Of a stretch of DNA of 64,000 bases, positions 4,110-34,212 are shown piece after piece. A program made the translations under genes and the position numbers. This DNA is from Patescibacteria group bacterium. Lineage in GTDB: Bacteria > Patescibacteriota > Minisyncoccia > Minisyncoccales > UBA10102. The stretch lies in assembly GCA_022563395.1 (NCBI GenBank), contig JADFNM010000001.1:334342-398341 (forward strand), in the 5' to 3' direction. Within the stretch, counting starts at the first letter, position 1. Every line of letters starts with the position of its first letter. A model generated the notes under the pieces. That model had not been told where the DNA came from and did no database searches. It saw only the letters and a list, made by a program, of their open reading frames with translations.

Positions 4110-4137
4110 CCACCTTAGTATACCATACTGTGCTCTT

Positions 4138-4181
4138 GCTTAAATTTCATTTAGTTATCCACACCTAAACGAGATTTAAGC
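4138..4181. repeat. REP-like hairpin, variant with 10-nt loop 'TTATCCACAC'
   Basis: 'gcttaaatttcatttag' + 'ttatccacac' + 'ctaaacgagatttaagc'. The arms are inverted copies (2 mismatches). The same unit recurs at 18722-18765 and 22804-22836. Confidence 0.8.
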
Positions 4182-4186
4182 AGAGG

Positions 4187-8601: not shown

Positions 8602-8623
8602 GTTTTGAGATAAACGCATATCT

Positions 8624-8641
8624 CCTAAATCTCGTTTAAGC
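8624..8641. repeat. Solo REP-like unit
   Basis: 'cctaaatctcgtttaagc'. A single unit, itself a 6-7-bp mini-hairpin, lying between the terminator and the rpoC stop. Confidence 0.6.
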
Positions 8642-8664
8642 ATGATTGATTCTATTGAATAATG

Positions 8665-18326: not shown

Positions 18327-18713
18327 CTAGTCTTCAACAATATTCTCATAGTGGTCTATGCGCCGCAATCCTTCATTTTCATCTATCACTAAGCACATAG
18401 CATCTATACGATAAGGGCCGTTATGTTTTTTTCGATGAATGTATGCTGCCGCGTTTCGCTTTAATCTCATGCGTTTTTTATAATCAATAGTTTCTTCTGG
18501 GGTTCCATAATGCTCGCGGCGTTTGGTGCGTACTTCCACGAATACGAGGGTACTTTTGCTGCGTCCGCAAAGGCCCCGGCGAAGGTGGGCAATGATATCA
18601 ATTTCTGCCCTCTTTGTCCTGTAATTTTGTTCAATAATCTTATATCCCTTGTTCTCTAAATACTTTCTTGCAATCTCCTCCCCTTCCTTTCCTATAGTAT
18701 TGTGTTTTGCCAT
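18327..18713 (-). CDS. yraN: YraN-family (UPF0102) endonuclease-like protein
   Basis: 128 aa. 'GKEGEEIARKYLENKGYKIIEQNYRTKRAEIDIIA...LVFVEVRTKR' matches the YraN pattern. Confidence 0.7.
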   Translation of the reverse strand: MAKHNTIGKEGEEIARKYLENKGYKIIEQNYRTKRAEIDIIAHLRRGLCGRSKSTLVFVEVRTKRREHYGTPEETIDYKKRMRLKRNAAAYIHRKKHNGPYRIDAMCLVIDENEGLRRIDHYENIVED

Positions 18714-18721
18714 GAGTCTTT

Positions 18722-18765
18722 GTCTTAATCTCGTTTAGTTATCCACACCTAAACGAGATTTAAGC
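18722..18765. repeat. REP-like hairpin, 'TTATCCACAC'-loop variant
   Basis: 'cttaatctcgtttag' + 'ttatccacac' + 'ctaaacgagatttaagc'. Located between the yraN start and the comM stop. Confidence 0.8.
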
Positions 18766-18774
18766 AAACTCAAC

Positions 18775-20310
18775 TTAATAGATTTCGTAGGACTTGGGAC
18801 GGTACTGCAAAGCTTCTGCCATATGACCTTTCTCAATCTGTTCTGTTCCCGCCAGGTCTGCTATACTGCGAGCAATTTTTATCATTTTCATGTATGATCT
18901 GGCCGAAAGCTGATACTGAAGCGCTGCTCTTGCTAACACTTGTTCTGCTTCTTTTGTAAAGTTGGCATATTTTTTAATATGTGTATTTTTCATCTCGGCG
19001 TTGGCATAGATAGGTTCTTTAAAGAATCTCCTTTCTTGCAGTCTTCTTACCTTTGTGATGCGCTCACGAACACTCCCTGAATCCTCTGTAGTGCTTAAAG
19101 CTCGTTGATTATCACCAAACTCTTTCACATCAACCTCTGGCACCTCAACATGCAAATCAATGCGGTCCAAAAGAGGCCCGGAAACTCGTTTTCTATATTT
19201 CTTTACCTCTCTTGGAGTACACACACAGGGCTTTTGGGGATGGTTGAGGTATCCGCACGGGCAAGGATTGCAAGATGCCACCAACATAAAGCGGCAAGGG
19301 TAGGTTACCCGCTCACGAGATCGTGAAATCGTAAGCATGCCGTCTTCCACGGGCTGGCGAAGTCCTTCCAATACAGATCGGGGAAACTCGTTAAACTCGT
19401 CTAAGAATAAAACTCCTCGATGTGCCAAGCTTACCTCGCCTGGCTGGGGTTTTTGACCACCTCCAATTAAGCCAACTTGAGAAACGCTGTGATGAGGAGA
19501 ACGAAAAGGTCGTGTGGTAATAAGCGATCCTCGGGGAGGAATAGACCCCGCAATAGAATAGATTTTTGTGACCTCAAGAGACTCTTCTTCGTTCAATTTT
19601 GGCAGAATCCCTGGCAGGGCCCGTGCCAGCATGGTTTTCCCCGAACCAGGGCTTCCTATCATTAATATATTGTGGCCACCCGCTGCAGCTATCTCAATGG
19701 CGCGTTTTGCGGTTTCCTGCCCAAGAATTTCTGCCATGTCAAACTCAATATCTTCCTTAAAATTCTCTTCTTTCTCTTCATACGAAACCGGCTTTAAAAA
19801 AGATTTCCCTAAAAGAAGTGCAGCTATCTCGGTAAGACTTTCTATCCCGTATACGTTTACGCCTCGAATAATGGCGGCCTCGTTTGCAGATTCTGCTGGC
19901 ACAAAAACATTTTGGAGCCCGTGCTCTTTTGCAAAAAGTGCCATAAGTACAGCCCCTTTTGTATGGCGCAGTTTTCCATCTAAAGAAAGTTCTCCTAAAA
20001 ATAGACTATCCTTGGGAACCTCATACTGCAGAACTGAGGCCATAATACCCACAGCTATTGGCAGGTCATACAAAGAACCTTCTTTGGGAATGTCGGCTGG
20101 CGCCAAATTCACCGTAATCTTTCTTTGAGGAAACTCAATTCTTGAATTGCCAATGGCAGCCCTCACCCTTTCCTTGCTCTCTTGAACCGCCTTGTCTGGC
20201 AGCCCCACAATGTCAAAACCCGGCAATCCTCTGTTAGAAACACTCACCTCAATATCAACCCCGAGAGCCTCCAGACCAGAATTTGCCGCAGATTGTACTT
20301 TAAATAACAT
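18775..20310 (-). CDS. comM: ComM/YifB Mg-chelatase-like AAA+ protein
   Basis: 511 aa. N-terminal Lon-like domain ('ITVNLAPADIPKEGSLYDLPIAVGI'), Walker A 'GSPGSGKTMLA', 'GVLFLDEFNEF', and a C-terminal ChlI-type region. Confidence 0.9.
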   Translation of the reverse strand: MLFKVQSAANSGLEALGVDIEVSVSNRGLPGFDIVGLPDKAVQESKERVRAAIGNSRIEFPQRKITVNLAPADIPKEGSLYDLPIAVGIMASVLQYEVPKDSLFLGELSLDGKLRHTKGAVLMALFAKEHGLQNVFVPAESANEAAIIRGVNVYGIESLTEIAALLLGKSFLKPVSYEEKEENFKEDIEFDMAEILGQETAKRAIEIAAAGGHNILMIGSPGSGKTMLARALPGILPKLNEEESLEVTKIYSIAGSIPPRGSLITTRPFRSPHHSVSQVGLIGGGQKPQPGEVSLAHRGVLFLDEFNEFPRSVLEGLRQPVEDGMLTISRSRERVTYPCRFMLVASCNPCPCGYLNHPQKPCVCTPREVKKYRKRVSGPLLDRIDLHVEVPEVDVKEFGDNQRALSTTEDSGSVRERITKVRRLQERRFFKEPIYANAEMKNTHIKKYANFTKEAEQVLARAALQYQLSARSYMKMIKIARSIADLAGTEQIEKGHMAEALQYRPKSYEIY

Positions 20311-21178
20311 GAAACTTGCCCTGCTCTTTTGTAATATGTCCTTTTAGTTGCAGCATCGAAATTGCAGCCCCCAGCTGTGCAGCCGGTATCTCAAGCTTTC
20401 TGGTAAGTGTGTCAATCTCCATCGCCTCCTTTTTAAGTTGTTCAACAATCTTTTGTTCCAATTCTCCTTCTACTTCTTCTAAGCGAGGTTTGCCCAAACG
20501 AGATTTAGGAGCTCCTAAATCTCGTTTAGGCAAACCATAATACTGCAGAATATCTTGTGCACTACTCACCAAAGTTGCACCTTCTTTGAGAAGCTGCGTC
20601 ACTCCTTGAGAAACAGCACTCGTAAGTGGATTTGGCACGGCAAATACCTTTCTTCCATACTTTTTTGCAAGGTTTGCGGTAATTAAGGCACCGCTGTCCT
20701 CACCTGCCTCCACCACAAGCGTTGCTTTTGATAACCCGGCAACAATGCGGTTCCGTCTAGGAAACGTCCAAGAAATTGCAGGGTGAGTGTCTTCGTACTC
20801 TGAGATTATCAAACCTCCTGTATCTAGAATTTCTTGATATAAATCTGCCTGGTACTCCGGATATACCACATCAATACCGCAAGGCATCACGGCAATGGTT
20901 TTGCCTTCGGCCTTCACCGCTGCCTTGTGAGCCTCAGCATCAATGCCATACATAAACCCAGAAACAATGGTTACTCCTGCCGCCGCCACTTCTCCCACAA
21001 TCTGTTCTGTCATGTGCCTTCCGTAGCCTGTCATTCTGCGCGTCCCAACCACCGCTAAGCACCTGTCAAAAATCTCGGGGTCCCAGTTTCCCTTGTAATA
21101 CAGCTGCTTTGGCGCATCCCCAATACTTTTGAGTACCTTTGGATACTTGGAATTTCCCTTTTCAATTACACCTCCCAT
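20300..21178 (-). CDS. dprA: DNA-processing protein DprA
   Basis: 'LAVVGTRRMTGYG', 'TIVSGFMYGIDAEAHKAA', 'TIAVMPCGIDVVYP', and a C-terminal winged-helix-like tail. I place the start at the ATG at 21178. The longer track ORF would overlap comF and cross a REP hairpin. Confidence 0.85.
   Translation of the reverse strand: MGGVIEKGNSKYPKVLKSIGDAPKQLYYKGNWDPEIFDRCLAVVGTRRMTGYGRHMTEQIVGEVAAAGVTIVSGFMYGIDAEAHKAAVKAEGKTIAVMPCGIDVVYPEYQADLYQEILDTGGLIISEYEDTHPAISWTFPRRNRIVAGLSKATLVVEAGEDSGALITANLAKKYGRKVFAVPNPLTSAVSQGVTQLLKEGATLVSSAQDILQYYGLPKRDLGAPKSRLGKPRLEEVEGELEQKIVEQLKKEAMEIDTLTRKLEIPAAQLGAAISMLQLKGHITKEQGKFHVI
20492..20531. repeat. 40-bp REP-like palindrome embedded in-frame in dprA
   Basis: 'gcccaaacgagatttaggagctcctaaatctcgtttaggc'. 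Inverted 17-20-nt arms with 1 mismatch. Read in dprA as 'LPKRDLGAPKSRLGKP'. Confidence 0.85.
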
Positions 21179-21199
21179 GTTTTTAAAACTCGCATACCT

Positions 21200-21235
21200 C
21201 CTTAATGAAATTAAGGATTCCTTAATTTCATTAAG
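21200..21235. repeat. REP-like palindrome, 'AATGAAATT' subtype
   Basis: 'ccttaatgaaattaagg' + 'att' + 'ccttaatttcattaag'. Located between the comF stop and the dprA start. Confidence 0.75.
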
Positions 21236-21237
21236 TT

Positions 21238-21966
21238 TTATGGGGTGCGGGCTATAGTAAAGCCCCACACTTCTTTTACGCCTGCTTTTTTCAAAGCCCT
21301 GCAGCACTCTTTCATTGTGGCTCCCGTGGTCCACACGTCATCTATCAAAACCACCCTCTCAATCCCAGTTCCACTAGGACTGGCTATTAATTCAAACGTA
21401 CCCTTTACGCTATGGAGCCGCTCTTCTTTGGTAAGATCTACCTGGGGCTTTGTGTCTTGTATTTTTTCTAACGTCCCGCGCACCTCTTTTTGTGCCAACT
21501 TTGCAACCTCTCTTGCGAATACTGCTGCTTGATTAAATCCGCGCTTCCTCTCCTTTTTTCTGTACATGGGCACGTATGTTACAAAAACGTTTTCTGAGAA
21601 CAAAAATGAGAGAAATGCCCCAAATCGCTTCTCGTCTTTTATCATTGTTTCAAAGGCGTGCCTTGTAGTCTCCTCCACAGCATGGGTAACGCCAGCATAC
21701 TTCACATAATGCAGCAAACTTTTCATGAGCCCTTCGTATTCCCACACACTTGCCAATCCCTCCAACCCATACATGGCTCTGCAGGCATGATGCCGCTCTC
21801 CTCCAAAGCTTGACTGCTGGCACGCCGGGCAAATCAACGCAACCTCACCCACAAAACCCTCGCACCTGGCACACATATATTTCCCTTCCTTCCCGCAACC
21901 CATGCAGGTTGCGGGAAATAATGCATCCAGCATACCACTCTTCACTTTTTCTAGAATTGTCATCAT
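21238..21966 (-). CDS. comF: ComF-family protein (ComFC-type phosphoribosyltransferase-like)
   Basis: N-terminal Cys clusters 'CMGCG...CARC...CPAC' and the PRT-type motif 'RVVLIDDVWTTGATM'. Confidence 0.8.
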   Translation of the reverse strand: MMTILEKVKSGMLDALFPATCMGCGKEGKYMCARCEGFVGEVALICPACQQSSFGGERHHACRAMYGLEGLASVWEYEGLMKSLLHYVKYAGVTHAVEETTRHAFETMIKDEKRFGAFLSFLFSENVFVTYVPMYRKKERKRGFNQAAVFAREVAKLAQKEVRGTLEKIQDTKPQVDLTKEERLHSVKGTFELIASPSGTGIERVVLIDDVWTTGATMKECCRALKKAGVKEVWGFTIARTP

Positions 21967-21997
21967 ATTCCTTCCTTCGTATATCTCCTTAATGAAA

Positions 21998-22717
21998 TTA
22001 CTCTAAAAACAGCTCATTCATCGCTCCCAGCCCCTTCTTTCCAAGAAGAATATCGCGCGCAAAGTCACGATATTGCTTTGGGCTGGAAAACAAATCTTCT
22101 GCAATTCCTTTCTCCACAATAATAGAATCCCGCTTCCCCAAGTATTCTTGGTGAGTACTCCAGGGATATTCTTTCGCAAATTTCAATATCCCCTCTACAT
22201 CCTGGGTACCCTGTTCTTTCAACATCGGCTCAATCTCCTGCCCGGGATTAATTACATTTATATATACAAGCAAATACTGAAGCTGCGTGTCTCTGTCTAC
22301 CATCACTGCCTTAAACACACCTTGGAACAATGAACCTACTCGTTCGTATTTTGTATTGAAATATTTTGTATATCCCACTCCAAGTTTCTGCATAAATTTT
22401 GAAATGCCGTCTTCTTGTATCTCCTCTAAAAGAAGGTGGAAATGGTTTGGCTTTAAGCAATCGGCCATAATACGCACTAGGGGTCTTCGTTCTACCCCCT
22501 CTTGTTTCATGTAGTCGCGTAAAATACCAAAGTGCATTTTGCCTTTTTCTTGCTCGAGTCGATACAGCAAATTGAGCGAACCGCCCTCATCGTTAAAAAG
22601 ATAGAGTCCCTGAAGAAATCTCTAGCGATCTCCATCGCTCAGAAAGATTTCACGCTTTTCAACGCCTCTATTGTATACATGATAAATTTTCCCTTTTTCA
22701 AATTTTACTCTTGCCAT
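21998..22717 (-). pseudogene. IS200/RAYT-like Y1 (HUH) transposase gene interrupted by one in-frame TAG
   Basis: My translation from the ATG at 22717 gives 'MARVKFEKGKIYHVYNRGVEKREIFLSDGDR*RFLQGLYLFNDEGGSLNLLYRLEQEKGKMHFG...'. This continues in frame into track ORF 21998..22570. HUH motif 'NHFHLLL'. Tyr motif 'GYTKYFNTKYERVGSLFQGVFKA'. The TAG is at 22622-22624. Confidence 0.7.
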
Positions 22718-22720
22718 TTT

Positions 22721-22878
22721 CTTATGCTTAAACGTTTCTTATGCTTAAACGAGATTTAGGAAGTATCTCTAATTATAACCCCACACGCAAAAATTTTACT
22801 ATTGCTTAAATCTCGTTTAGGTGTGGATAACTAAATTCCATCTGGGGGATACTCGGTGTGCTTAAATCTCGTTTAAGC
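22721..22878. repeat. Cluster of REP-like units upstream of the RAYT pseudogene
   Basis: Units 'gcttaaacgagatttagg' (22743-22760), 'gcttaaatctcgtttag'+'gtgtggataa' (22804-22830) and 'gcttaaatctcgtttaagc' (22860-22878). Also a short direct duplication 'cttatgcttaaacg' x2 (22721-22750). Confidence 0.75.
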
Positions 22879-23110
22879 AACCTTGGTTTATCTGAAGTAT
22901 TTATCTGAAGGAGGGATCTACATCATCTATTGCTGTAGCTCCTGCATCTATAGTAGAAAGTTCCCTGCTCAATCTCCACCAAACTTAGTCCGACTAACGC
23001 CCCCACTATACCCGCTCGTTACTTTCACGCCGGTGTTATCACCAGTAAGACGGTCGACATATCCAAGAGTGGAGGAAAGAGAAACCTTAAACTTACCGGC
23101 ATCACTCTGG

Positions 23111-23584
23111 TCAACGCCAATCGCCCAAGTCCTGGAAACTGTCTGCAAGTTCACGGCCCAACTCATACCAGGTGTCCTTGCCAAAAGCCATTCCAAAAGA
23201 CAAGAGAAGCACAATTGCTATTACTGCAATACCAAATCGAAAAGCAGCAAACGGACTCGGGGGGTGATAAACATCCCCCGCCCCGTGTTCATCACGGGGT
23301 GAGCCCGTCAACTCTTCTCCGGAAAATAGTTCTGCTGGAAGATTTTCTGGGGGTTCAGGCAAACTGCTTTGCCTAGGGCTTTTATCCCTGCCATTTTGAT
23401 ACAGGTCAGCATTATCCACATATTCATCAAGCCAGTGTTTGGTAGTAACCCAGTTTCTTCCCAGCTTTATCGCTTTCAGTTTTCCCTGCCGAGCACGCAA
23501 GCTTAAATACTCTTGCGAATAGCTGCAGAGTTCTGATGCCTTTTGCAAAGAAAGGTATTCAATTTGTGTGTCTTTTCTGTGCAT
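23111..23584 (-). CDS. Helix-turn-helix (excisionase/MerR-like HTH) protein with C-terminal TM segment
   Basis: 'EYLSLQKASELCSYSQEYLSLRARQGKLKAIKLGRNWVTTKHWLDEYV' followed by the hydrophobic 'FRFGIAVIAIVLLLSFGMAF'. ATG at 23584; the track start at 23620 is TTG. Confidence 0.6.
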   Translation of the reverse strand: MHRKDTQIEYLSLQKASELCSYSQEYLSLRARQGKLKAIKLGRNWVTTKHWLDEYVDNADLYQNGRDKSPRQSSLPEPPENLPAELFSGEELTGSPRDEHGAGDVYHPPSPFAAFRFGIAVIAIVLLLSFGMAFGKDTWYELGRELADSFQDLGDWR

Positions 23585-23850
23585 AACCTGTGGGCTAGCT
23601 TGGGGGAAAAAGGTGTACAAAATGTTGTCTTGACAAACATGGAGAAACTATCGGGGGCTTTTCTATTTTCCTGCCTGTTTAAAGCCAGTGACAAAGAACA
23701 TCTTGAATATGTTATTACATTATCCGCGAAACAAAAACTTCCGTCAAGAGAAGATATGTGGATAACCGATATAGCCCCACTCACCCTATCGGGTAAACGA
23801 TAATTTCTAAACTTGGTCATTGGGTATTGGGATTTAGCTAGACATTCAGA

Positions 23851-24942: not shown

Positions 24943-24955
24943 ATAACATTGATTG

Positions 24956-24993
24956 CCTAAACGAGATTTAGGAGTCCCTAAATCTCGTTTAGG
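24956..24993. repeat. REP-like palindrome (CGAG subtype)
   Basis: 'cctaaacgagatttagg' + 'agtc' + 'cctaaatctcgtttagg'. Perfect 17-nt inverted arms. Confidence 0.85.
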
Positions 24994-25009
24994 AACACAC
25001 CCAAAATAT

Positions 25010-25119: not shown

Positions 25120-25129
25120 CTGACTGGTT

Positions 25130-25169
25130 GCTTAAATGAGATTTAAGAGCTCTTAAATCTCATTTAAGC
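25130..25169. repeat. Perfect 40-bp REP-like palindrome (TGAG subtype)
   Basis: 'gcttaaatgagatttaagagctcttaaatctcatttaagc'. Supplies the last Ala codon and the TAA stop of the RAYT-like gene. Confidence 0.9.
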
Positions 25170-25862
25170 AGTGTCAAAAAACAGTTTTCTTCCCTCATTC
25201 TGTAAATCCTCTATATACGAGGTATAATCTTGTCTATCAGCAAAGAACTCCCCACCCAGAATCTTTAAAAGATTTGCTCTGCCCTCTGGGGAAAGCAAAT
25301 GAGAGGTTCTGGTTCCAAAAAGGTCAGGAAAGCTTGAATAAGGATACTGCAAAAGAGCGTCTTGGCTGTAGTGGTCAAGTATCTTTTTTATATTAATGTA
25401 TTTCACCACGCTTGCCAGCTGCTTTGAGTTTACAATGGGGGCAGCTTTAAATCGCCCTTCAAATAAAGTGCCGGTTCTCTTGTTTTTAAGGTTGTAGTAT
25501 TTAGCAAAGCCCAAGTTAAGCTTTTGCATGTATAAAGGGATTCCCTCTTTTTTTGCCGGGACTATGCCTAAGTGGTAGCGGTCTTTACCAAGAGCAAAGC
25601 TAAAGAGGTGCACTAAGGGATCGTGCTCATTTTGCACAAAACCCTTGGGGATCGGCTCACCCTGCAAAATGGCGTTTGATATCTGAAAAATGTCTTTTCG
25701 GTACAGGTTAATAACGGGCTTTCCAATGTTTGCAGCATACATTTGAAACACAAACCGGGCCCGATCCTCTTTGGCCGCAAAAATCTCCCTGCCCTCTACC
25801 GCCTTTCCTAAAATATGGTAGGGGCGTATTTTCTCAGTGAGCTGTTCTTTTCTTTTTGGCAT
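25164..25862 (-). CDS. IS200/RAYT-like tyrosine transposase homologue (variant HUH region)
   Basis: 232 aa. N-terminus 'YHILGKAVEGREIFAAKEDRARFV' aligns with the pseudogene N-terminus. Tyr motif 'GFAKYYNLKNKRTGTLFEGRFKA'. The HUH position reads 'DRYHLGIV', so the first His appears replaced. Confidence 0.65.
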   Translation of the reverse strand: MPKRKEQLTEKIRPYHILGKAVEGREIFAAKEDRARFVFQMYAANIGKPVINLYRKDIFQISNAILQGEPIPKGFVQNEHDPLVHLFSFALGKDRYHLGIVPAKKEGIPLYMQKLNLGFAKYYNLKNKRTGTLFEGRFKAAPIVNSKQLASVVKYINIKKILDHYSQDALLQYPYSSFPDLFGTRTSHLLSPEGRANLLKILGGEFFADRQDYTSYIEDLQNEGRKLFFDTA

Positions 25863-25936
25863 AGGCTAAGGATATTTTAGCAGGAAAATAAAAAAGCACC
25901 AAGAGGCGCAATCCACAGCGTATAATCCCCCATGTT

Positions 25937-25976
25937 GCTTAAATGAGATTTAGGAACTCCTAAATCTCATTTAAGC
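25937..25976. repeat. 40-bp REP-like palindrome (TGAG subtype)
   Basis: 'gcttaaatgagatttaggaactcctaaatctcatttaagc', with one central mismatch. Lies upstream of the RAYT-like gene. Confidence 0.9.
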
Positions 25977-25997
25977 AGAATCATCTGCTTCATAGAG

Positions 25998-28070
<2,073 letters not shown>

Positions 28071-34145: not shown

Positions 34146-34212
34146 CTTAACGAGATTAAGTTCTCCTAAATCTCGTTTAGGACATATTCGGGAATCCTTA
34201 ATTTCATTTAGG
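34146..34212. repeat. REP-like units inside the GC-rich block
   Basis: 'cttaacgagattaag' (34146-34160), 'cctaaatctcgtttagg' (34165-34181), 'ccttaatttcatttagg' (34196-34212). Confidence 0.75.

Follow-up and report, generated by a model that had tools for sequence, protein, structure and literature searches.

The system closest to the one considered here is that of the repetitive extragenic palindromic (REP) sequences, their hairpin-forming doublets (REPIN) and the REP-associated tyrosine transposases (RAYT), whose hallmarks are described in PMC3116915 (Bertels & Rainey 2011) and PMC3337134. Classical REPs are marked, furthermore, by a conserved tetranucleotide, GTAG or CGTC, at one of their ends (PMC3733652). 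On the protein-coding side, the Rickettsia palindromic elements (RPE; Ogata et al. 2000, 2002), as far as the summary in PMC10969869 presents them, measure ~100-150 bp and encode a conserved peptide. Here we examine a 64-kb stretch from a Patescibacteria group bacterium (contig JADFNM010000001.1, hereafter the window), in which a palindrome lies in frame within dprA, close to a gene encoding a HUH-Y1 protein (hereafter Y1). This palindrome is probably a non-autonomous mobile element of the REPIN kind, which DprA tolerates because the linker concerned is permissive. By analogy, the mechanism and architecture of the system would be like those of REPIN-RAYT and its consequence like that of the Rickettsia coding palindromes, and we may regard it as a Patescibacteria analogue. 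In the literature searched, no description was found of REP/RAYT or coding palindromes in Patescibacteria and the candidate phyla radiation, or in DprA linkers.

The palindrome spans positions 20487-20536 and is made of two arms of 25 nt (20487-20511 and 20512-20536), which are 96% complementary, with one mismatch, and adjoin without a spacer. The initial annotation had located a palindrome at 20492-20531 within the dprA open reading frame (ORF); it does exist and turns out to be the inner 40 nt of this longer structure, the outer arms of which are TGCC/GGCA and GGTT/AACC. Because none of 100 dinucleotide-preserving shuffles matches its 32-nt core, a chance origin is excluded. As sense-strand RNA, the palindrome reaches -39.2 kcal/mol, compared with -13.5 +/- 2.9 for shuffles (z = -9). 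It encodes residues 215-231 of DprA (residues 267-283 of the longer ORF 20300..21334), which read GLPKRDLGAPKSRLGKP. Translation indicates that one frame in three is open on each strand and that this frame is the one in use, as had been noticed at the outset; the opposite strand, thought to give nearly the same peptide, gives an identical one, and the plus-strand ORF 20316..20540 has it as its C-terminal end. The use of the open frame is a survivorship condition with a prior of 1 in 3, and not an adaptation.

Pfam recognises DNA_processg_A at residues 56-257 (244 bits) and DprA_WH at residues 284-339 of ORF 20300..21334, so that the palindrome falls between the two domains, in agreement with its proposed location between the Rossmann-like core and the winged-helix tail. 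In an AlphaFold model of DprA (40 homologues), with a predicted local distance difference test (pLDDT) score of 87.5, both domains are confidently modelled and residues 214-238 form a coil, with pLDDT < 50 at 221-231, within the palindrome-encoded stretch. The palindrome-encoded residues are thus predicted to form a disordered linker between the core and the winged helix, the placement that the initial annotation had proposed to check. A split or inactive dprA, considered at that stage as well, does not apply here, the gene being neither split nor truncated; an identical protein has been deposited as DprA MCH7828629.1 ("Patescibacteria group bacterium").

In the dprA palindrome, a mini-hairpin unit of ~17-21 nt, CTAAA-CGAGA-TTTAG, is present twice in inverted orientation; the intergenic form of this unit, TGCTTAAA-CGAGA-TTTAAGCA, consists of a stem of 8 bp closed by a loop of 5 nt. 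Counted over the 64-kb window only, the half-site TAAAYGAGATTTARG occurs 20 times at ~10 places against 0.62 expected, and all copies except that of dprA are intergenic. REPIN-like inverted doublets are found at 20487, 24954, 25129 and 25932, the last three being full 42-nt copies, head-to-head with a GAGCTC centre; spacer-type doublets occur at 4137 and 18719, and single units at 8620 and 22861 (Table 1). As in REP/REPIN-RAYT systems, short imperfect palindromes recur outside genes, here over the 64-kb window, with the inverted doublet as replicative form and with families that are particular to each genome and change in place. The organisation differs by the host, a member of the Patescibacteria with a genome of ~0.67 Mb, and by the very small units, the stem having 5-8 bp and the loop 5 nt, and the two units of a doublet being separated by 0-4 nt or by a conserved TTATCCACAC.

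The perfect doublet at 25129-25170 may be taken as the full-length element, with 42 nt or 14 codons. Given this length, an insertion never shifts the downstream frame and reads through one time in three. Indeed, in its CGAGA-loop form and in the frame used in dprA, the 42-nt doublet reads LKRDLRALKSRLS without stops, and the other two frames contain TAA/TAG. The copy at 25129 has a TGAGA loop, which places a TGA in the frame used by dprA.

The Y1 protein (239 aa, prolonged at its C-terminal end by a long helical region) matches Pfam Y1_Tnp with 26.8 bits for a cut-off of 23, and displays the HUH motif NHFHLLL together with a YINVINP tyrosine region. H92, H94 and Y148/Y152 are invariant in its family, which counts 1252 members at E <= 1e-5; where a source names these, it calls them "transposase" or "putative transposase". 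For its AlphaFold model (pLDDT 88.7), the best Foldseek match in the PDB is 4er8_A (E 1e-6; template modelling score of 0.69 on the target), which ranks ahead of the ISDra2 and IS608 (IS200/IS605) transposases. The 4ER8 structure shows the REP-associated tyrosine transposase of E. coli in complex with a REP hairpin. Judged from the model, Y1 has an IS200-like fold closest to TnpA-REP and is RAYT-like.

In 31 of the 80 species-level dprA loci that were compared (designated below by L numbers), Y1 is at most 3 kb away from dprA, with 35-73% identity, and the order Y1-comFC-dprA-comM-yraN is kept across many Patescibacteria species (18327-22717 in the window; 958-5327 in L081). The ends of the Y1 gene are flanked by palindromes in 26/50 cases, compared with 119/1373 for other gene ends (p = 3e-14). 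Furthermore, loci with Y1 contain more palindromes (p = 0.015), and a palindrome in dprA is present in 12/34 loci with Y1 versus 6/46 without (p = 0.03). Another feature in common with REP/REPIN-RAYT systems is a HUH-Y1 gene that is inherited vertically, presumably in single copy, and bordered by the repeats, here with a predicted fold nearest to 4ER8; compared with RAYTs, the present protein is longer, divergent and unrecognised by the curated RAYT model.

Sequence comparison of orthologues gives an indication of the age of the insert. The closest DprA proteins (P0002-P0008 and P0010, 79-87% identical to the window protein) all have KRDLGxPKSRLG, and the DNA of five independent relatives shows the identical core CTAAACGAGATTTAGG-NNNT-CCTAAATCTCGTTTAG: L081 (TARA, with L082 and L083 as further contigs), L084 and L086 (JGI), L085 (Logan) and L087 (ENA). 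Since five independent assemblies show one core, the insert is not an assembly artefact, and it appears clade-wide and fairly old. The lineage specificity that the initial annotation had proposed to examine for a 16-aa insert therefore holds at the level of the clade (orthologues with ~79-87% identity have it) and not at that of the genome. These orthologues do not share the segment in the absence of any REP family either, as the relatives have hairpin-doublet families of their own, with intergenic doublets of other sequence types (CTTAACTTAGTTAAG, CTTAATGAAATTAAG, CTTGCTCNGAGCAAG and CTTGCCGAGGGCAAG). The 15-mer of the CGAGA unit is nevertheless found unchanged beside Y1 in L006, L034 and L055, where DprA is 56-68% identical and the dprA linkers are without palindrome. 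Since these loci have the 15-mer at Y1 and not in the dprA linker, the CGAGA family predates the insertion in dprA, which is specific to the clade of the window. We also considered the dprA copy as the ancestral seed of the intergenic family, an idea suggested by the short contigs of the relatives, where the unit is seen in dprA only; it was rejected in view of the identical unit flanking Y1 in the distant L006, L034 and L055. Linkers of the RGHAKIRRTAARNYAE type (L088 and relatives) hold a 5+5 centre only and no convincing relic of a palindrome, and a metagenome-wide scan for the degenerate 34-nt doublet returned solely the TARA relative. The 15 extra nt of the window copy (Table 1) are identical at 10/15 positions to the preceding AAATCTCGTTTGGGC (KSRLG) and may have arisen from one arm through a slippage duplication that has since decayed; a partial duplication of similar kind is present in L085.

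The linker has been struck more than once. Among the 80 species-level loci, which come from the GTDB species representatives scanned and are all distinct from the source genome, 18 bear, at exactly the same linker, a palindrome whose arms measure 14 nt or more, the sequences being unrelated. Examples are the GTAG-tagged doublet GTAGGGTCAGACCCTAC in L001, CCTAAGCTAAGCTTAGG in L003, CCTAAACCAGGTTTAGG in L004, a 30+30 palindrome in L030 and GTCGGAC-containing types in L073, L076 and L078. When loci are arranged by DprA similarity, bearers adjoin non-bearing close relatives (L001/L002 at 18% distance, L050/L027 and L075/L067), which argues for a fast turnover of the palindromes. In the window (64 kb), as well as in L003, L004, L017, L018 and L050 (<= 20 kb), the dprA palindrome matches copies elsewhere at the same locus.

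Palindromes are not spread evenly: their density per kb amounts to 0.25 in dprA and 0.48 in comFC, compared with 0.39 in non-coding DNA, 0.026 in other coding sequences (ORFs >= 150 aa) and 0.026 in comM, and a gene-level Fisher test of dprA against other genes gives p = 3e-8. With ORFs >= 150 aa, the 80 species loci hold 51 coding versus 59 non-coding palindromes; in the related loci, 67 of 143 long palindromes are inside ORFs >= 90 aa, as called by a crude greedy caller covering 93% of the DNA. REPs being extragenic by definition, the many copies found inside genes set the present elements apart. In comFC, in-frame inserts occupy ~3 recurrent places, at about nt 70-155, 360-370 and 490-590 of the ORF. 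The ligA palindrome, of which the window holds no second copy, adds ~14 residues (a 14-codon insert) to an adenylation-domain loop; it is missing from solved LigA structures and from 666-aa relatives. Both of the nearest LigA proteins have it, and in other lineages this loop is occupied by palindromic-looking peptides of a different sequence. In both dprA and ligA, the palindrome is thus in frame, within an intact gene, at a surface or disordered site and missing from some orthologues, as is characteristic of protein-coding palindromes. The likeness to RPEs, as these are presented in the review cited above, lies in palindromic mobile repeats inserted in frame in unrelated protein-coding genes of a reduced genome, giving extra peptides at permissive surface sites of host proteins that stay intact. 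The elements described here are on the other hand hairpin doublets of ~40-56 bp with a RAYT-like partner, an associated transposase going unmentioned in that review, and different families strike the dprA linker and the comFC regions recurrently. Homology to the Rickettsia RPE families is unlikely, given the size (40-56 versus 100-150 bp) and the host.

Table 1. Positions in the 64-kb window of the genes, hairpin units and palindromes discussed in the text.
Feature	Position	Strand	Description
Composite unit-TTATCCACAC-unit	4137..4182	.	Between two divergent genes, phosphoglucomutase-like and rpsF
Single unit CCTAAATCTCGTTTAAGCA	8620..8645	.	Intergenic spacer
Composite unit-TTATCCACAC-unit	18719..18768	.	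comM/yraN spacer
dprA, intact	20300..21178	-	292 aa; Rossmann core and C-terminal winged helix; probable start at M53 of ORF 20300..21334
15 extra nt AAACCTCGCTTAGAA (KPRLE)	20477..20491	-	From codon alignment; present in the window copy only
In-frame hairpin doublet (REPIN-like)	20487..20536	-	Two inverted CCYAAA-CGAGA-TTTRGG units joined by AGCT
Second-type hairpin doublet CTTAATGAAATTAAGGA/TCCTTAATTTCATTAAG	21201..21235	.	Between comFC stop and dprA start
comFC	21238..21966	-	ComF family: double zinc ribbon and phosphoribosyltransferase domain
RAYT-like HUH-Y1 gene	21998..22717	-	Pfam Y1_Tnp; two genes from dprA
Three CGAGA units	22741-22762, 22800-22821, 22861-22881	.	Directly upstream of the Y1 gene (22741..22881)
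Doublet TGCCTAAACGAGATTTAGGAGTCCCTAAATCTCGTTTAGGAA, CGAGA-unit family	24954..24995	.	Intergenic, upstream of ftsW
Perfect 42-nt doublet TGCTTAAATGAGATTTAAGAGCTCTTAAATCTCATTTAAGCA	25129..25170	.	Outer end overlaps the stop of ORF 25164..25862
Doublet, CGAGA-unit family	25932..25981	.	Intergenic, directly downstream of the ligA stop
Perfect 20+20 palindrome CCTTAGTTTAGCCAAGGATATATCCTTGGCTAAACTAAGG	27507..27546	-	In frame in ligA (NAD-dependent DNA ligase), ORF 25998..28040
CGAGA- and TGAAA-type units	34146..34210	.	Divergent intergenic region

We propose the following scenario. The CGAGA hairpin unit would be an old repeat family of the Patescibacteria group, which the nearby, presumably single-copy, RAYT-like HUH-Y1 enzyme would mobilise on single-stranded DNA, as the analogy with REPIN-RAYT suggests. 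In the ancestor of the clade, a copy would have landed in the linker codons between the Rossmann core and the winged helix. With a stop-free frame (1/3) and a length that is a multiple of three, it would have added or replaced ~14-17 linker residues and left a functional DprA, the insert being presumably neutral for the activity of the protein. Permissiveness of the linker may be what makes it a hot spot, allowing insertions to survive repeatedly across lineages, and the same could apply to comFC and to the ligA loop.

Several observations weigh against this scenario. An in-frame TAG (22622-22624) falls in the window Y1 at the family-invariant W32 (GDRWRF -> GDR*RF); this possibly reflects a recent pseudogene or a sequencing error, and readthrough could also be envisaged. 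Y1 scores 18.3 bits against NCBIfam REP_Tyr_transpos, whose cut-off is 80, and is not a member of that curated family; its alignment with E. coli RayT by hhalign has a probability of 0.8% and aligns the HUH motif only. A profile search of PDB sequences with Y1 retrieved only ISDra2 TnpA (E 0.66), and phmmer gave no link from Y1 to characterised RAYTs. As for the repeat, the units of the window lack the GTAG/CGTC tetranucleotide, which is present in some other lineages (the L001 dprA palindrome, L054, L056 and L079), and the confinement of the CGAGA unit to dprA in the short contigs of the relatives is likewise unfavourable. For dprA, we see neither a transposition event nor a target duplication. 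Its linker is hypervariable, with other segments of ~16 aa in outgroups, and a clean empty site is neither visible nor definable because every outgroup has some other variable segment at this place. Furthermore, comM is as near Y1 as dprA and comFC are but is not enriched in palindromes, and a competence-linked function could explain this distribution too. Finally, the palindrome is conserved at the nucleotide level. Mean pairwise nucleotide identity of dprA in the clade is 80%, and 64% at third positions, whereas the arms reach 93% overall and 85% at third positions; only one of 289 contiguous third-position windows is as conserved as the arms, and it is the palindrome itself. In L086, four changes (AAA->AAG twice, GAT->GAC and CGT->CGC) together leave the small hairpins as well as the long palindrome intact. 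Arm conservation and compensation, which pure neutrality does not predict, hint at a constraint on the DNA itself.

These last features could betray a selected nucleic-acid element within dprA, be it an mRNA hairpin tuning the translation or stability of comFC-dprA-comM or a protein-bound DNA hairpin, and the high stability of the hairpin (-39 kcal/mol), the recurrence of palindromes at one site in many lineages and the enrichment of dprA and comFC without comM go in the same direction. We nevertheless hold such an element to be unlikely: sequences are wholly different between lineages and close relatives have none, the CGAGA unit is also an ordinary intergenic repeat, and similar inserts are found in ligA and in large unrelated proteins. 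An RNA structure, the second reading put forward by the initial annotation, finds no echo in an Rfam scan of the window at gathering thresholds, which gave no match, nor in a terminator scan, with no terminator-like call at 20487-20536 and no T/U-tract after the dprA hairpin; a tRNA/tmRNA scan of the window returned nothing. Mismatches of coding palindromes on the sense strand are equally G.T and A.C (20 versus 20), as expected of a DNA-level palindrome, since a sense-RNA helix would favour G.U. The conservation of the arms is also compatible with a transposase-specificity constraint acting across the whole family, which is plausible because the same 15-mer persists in genomes with 56-68% DprA identity. 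Hairpin-templated correction of quasi-palindromes is an established mutational mechanism that can produce compensated changes without selection, and it is a possible further cause of those in L086.

Alternatively, the genome-specific hairpins and the RAYT-like gene of the comFC-dprA-comM-yraN cluster could belong to the transformation machinery. In that case the Y1 gene would be a conserved member of this cluster, and the hairpins, including the copies in dprA and comFC, which would not be there by accident, might be self-DNA marks, or processing or recombination-targeting signals acting on single strands during natural transformation, within a domesticated hairpin-mark system rather than selfish DNA. 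The proximity of Y1 to dprA at deeply diverged loci, the fact that HUH-Y1 enzymes act on hairpins of single-stranded DNA, which the 4er8 and IS608 structures illustrate, and the palindrome enrichment of comFC and dprA would be in keeping with it; but the repeats have the look of ordinary REPs and occupy intergenic positions of every kind, the Y1 of the window has a stop codon, many dprA loci have no Y1 nearby, and ligA and other unrelated genes bear inserts as well, so we deem this possibility quite improbable. It seems scarcely credible, lastly, that the segment is a native linker, a duplicated PKxxLG peptide under protein selection whose likeness to the repeats is coincidental, or that it results from faulty assembly. 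While the conservation of KRDLGxPKSRLG among orthologues and the similar linker length in lineages without palindrome would suit a native linker, its halves are inverted and not direct at the DNA level, its 15-mer is identical to intergenic copies in this genome and in distant ones, and shuffles yield no chance match; the same sequence in independent TARA, JGI, ENA, Logan and NCBI assemblies argues against an artefact. A REP-like mobile repeat tolerated as a linker insertion, which the initial annotation had offered as its first reading, is in turn favoured by the intergenic repeats, the RAYT-like neighbour and the disordered residues.

Should this reading be correct, REPIN/RAYT-type hairpin repeats would exist in ultra-small Patescibacteria genomes and be routinely translated there, reshaping inter-domain linkers and loops of core DNA-metabolism proteins such as DprA, ComFC and LigA, whose hypervariable linkers may derive largely from mobile DNA. 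Gene callers and aligners would be expected to misplace starts and indels near such palindromes. Furthermore, the synteny of Y1 with competence genes and the nucleotide conservation of the dprA copy raise the question of whether an organism dependent on DNA uptake would harbour these repeats as purely selfish DNA.

The start of dprA offers a case in point for annotation. The long ORF, with its 5' extension at 21179-21334, and a deposited 322-aa DprA model both read through the palindrome at 21201-21235 (SPHPIKLNEIKESLISL), and the extension overlaps the 3' end of comFC. Because orthologues begin at the later Met (21178), that is at M53 of the ORF, the true gene is probably the 292-aa one and the extension probably an annotation artefact arising from a stop-free intergenic palindrome. 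L085 has an orthologous doublet in its comFC/dprA spacer. For Y1, the match in L076 likewise has a stop, and several database homologues are called with ~178-191 aa, the N-terminal part being missing. Palindromes occur in comFC of L007, L017, L018, L027, L032, L045, L050 and L069, with up to three per gene (L045), and their density per kb exceeds that of non-coding DNA. Long in-frame doublets are also found in very large proteins (L088 6148-6189, L008 2722-2777, L065 7581-7638 and L034 4367-4403), the host ORFs of which, in the present calls, have from ~1,100 to 2,500 aa or more, the L088 gene being recorded with 6,102 aa.

The second type of doublet in the CGAGA family calls to mind BIME-1/RIP of E. 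coli, in which two inverted REPs surround an integration host factor (IHF) site. Here, two hairpins surround the protein-binding-like GTTATCCACAC, which includes the DnaA-box consensus; the central motif is DnaA-box-like and not an IHF site, and the dprA copy belongs to the AGCT-spacer type. The perfect DnaA-box 9-mer TTATCCACA occurs six times in the window against 0.51 expected (4155, 18739, 22822, 23412, 23757 and 29702), and three of these copies (4155, 18739 and 22822) form the spacer, between or beside hairpin units; one unit upstream of Y1 abuts GTGTGGATAAC (22822-22830). Between the Y1 gene and ftsW, the region 22883-23850 has weak overlapping ORFs only, with no Pfam match apart from a sub-threshold HTH_17, and contains two perfect DnaA boxes (23412 and 23757). 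The hairpin-GTTATCCACA(C/G)-hairpin layout is kept across genomes although the hairpin sequences vary, DnaA-box/hairpin loci being found in L002, L003, L006, L008, L009, L081, L084 and L088.

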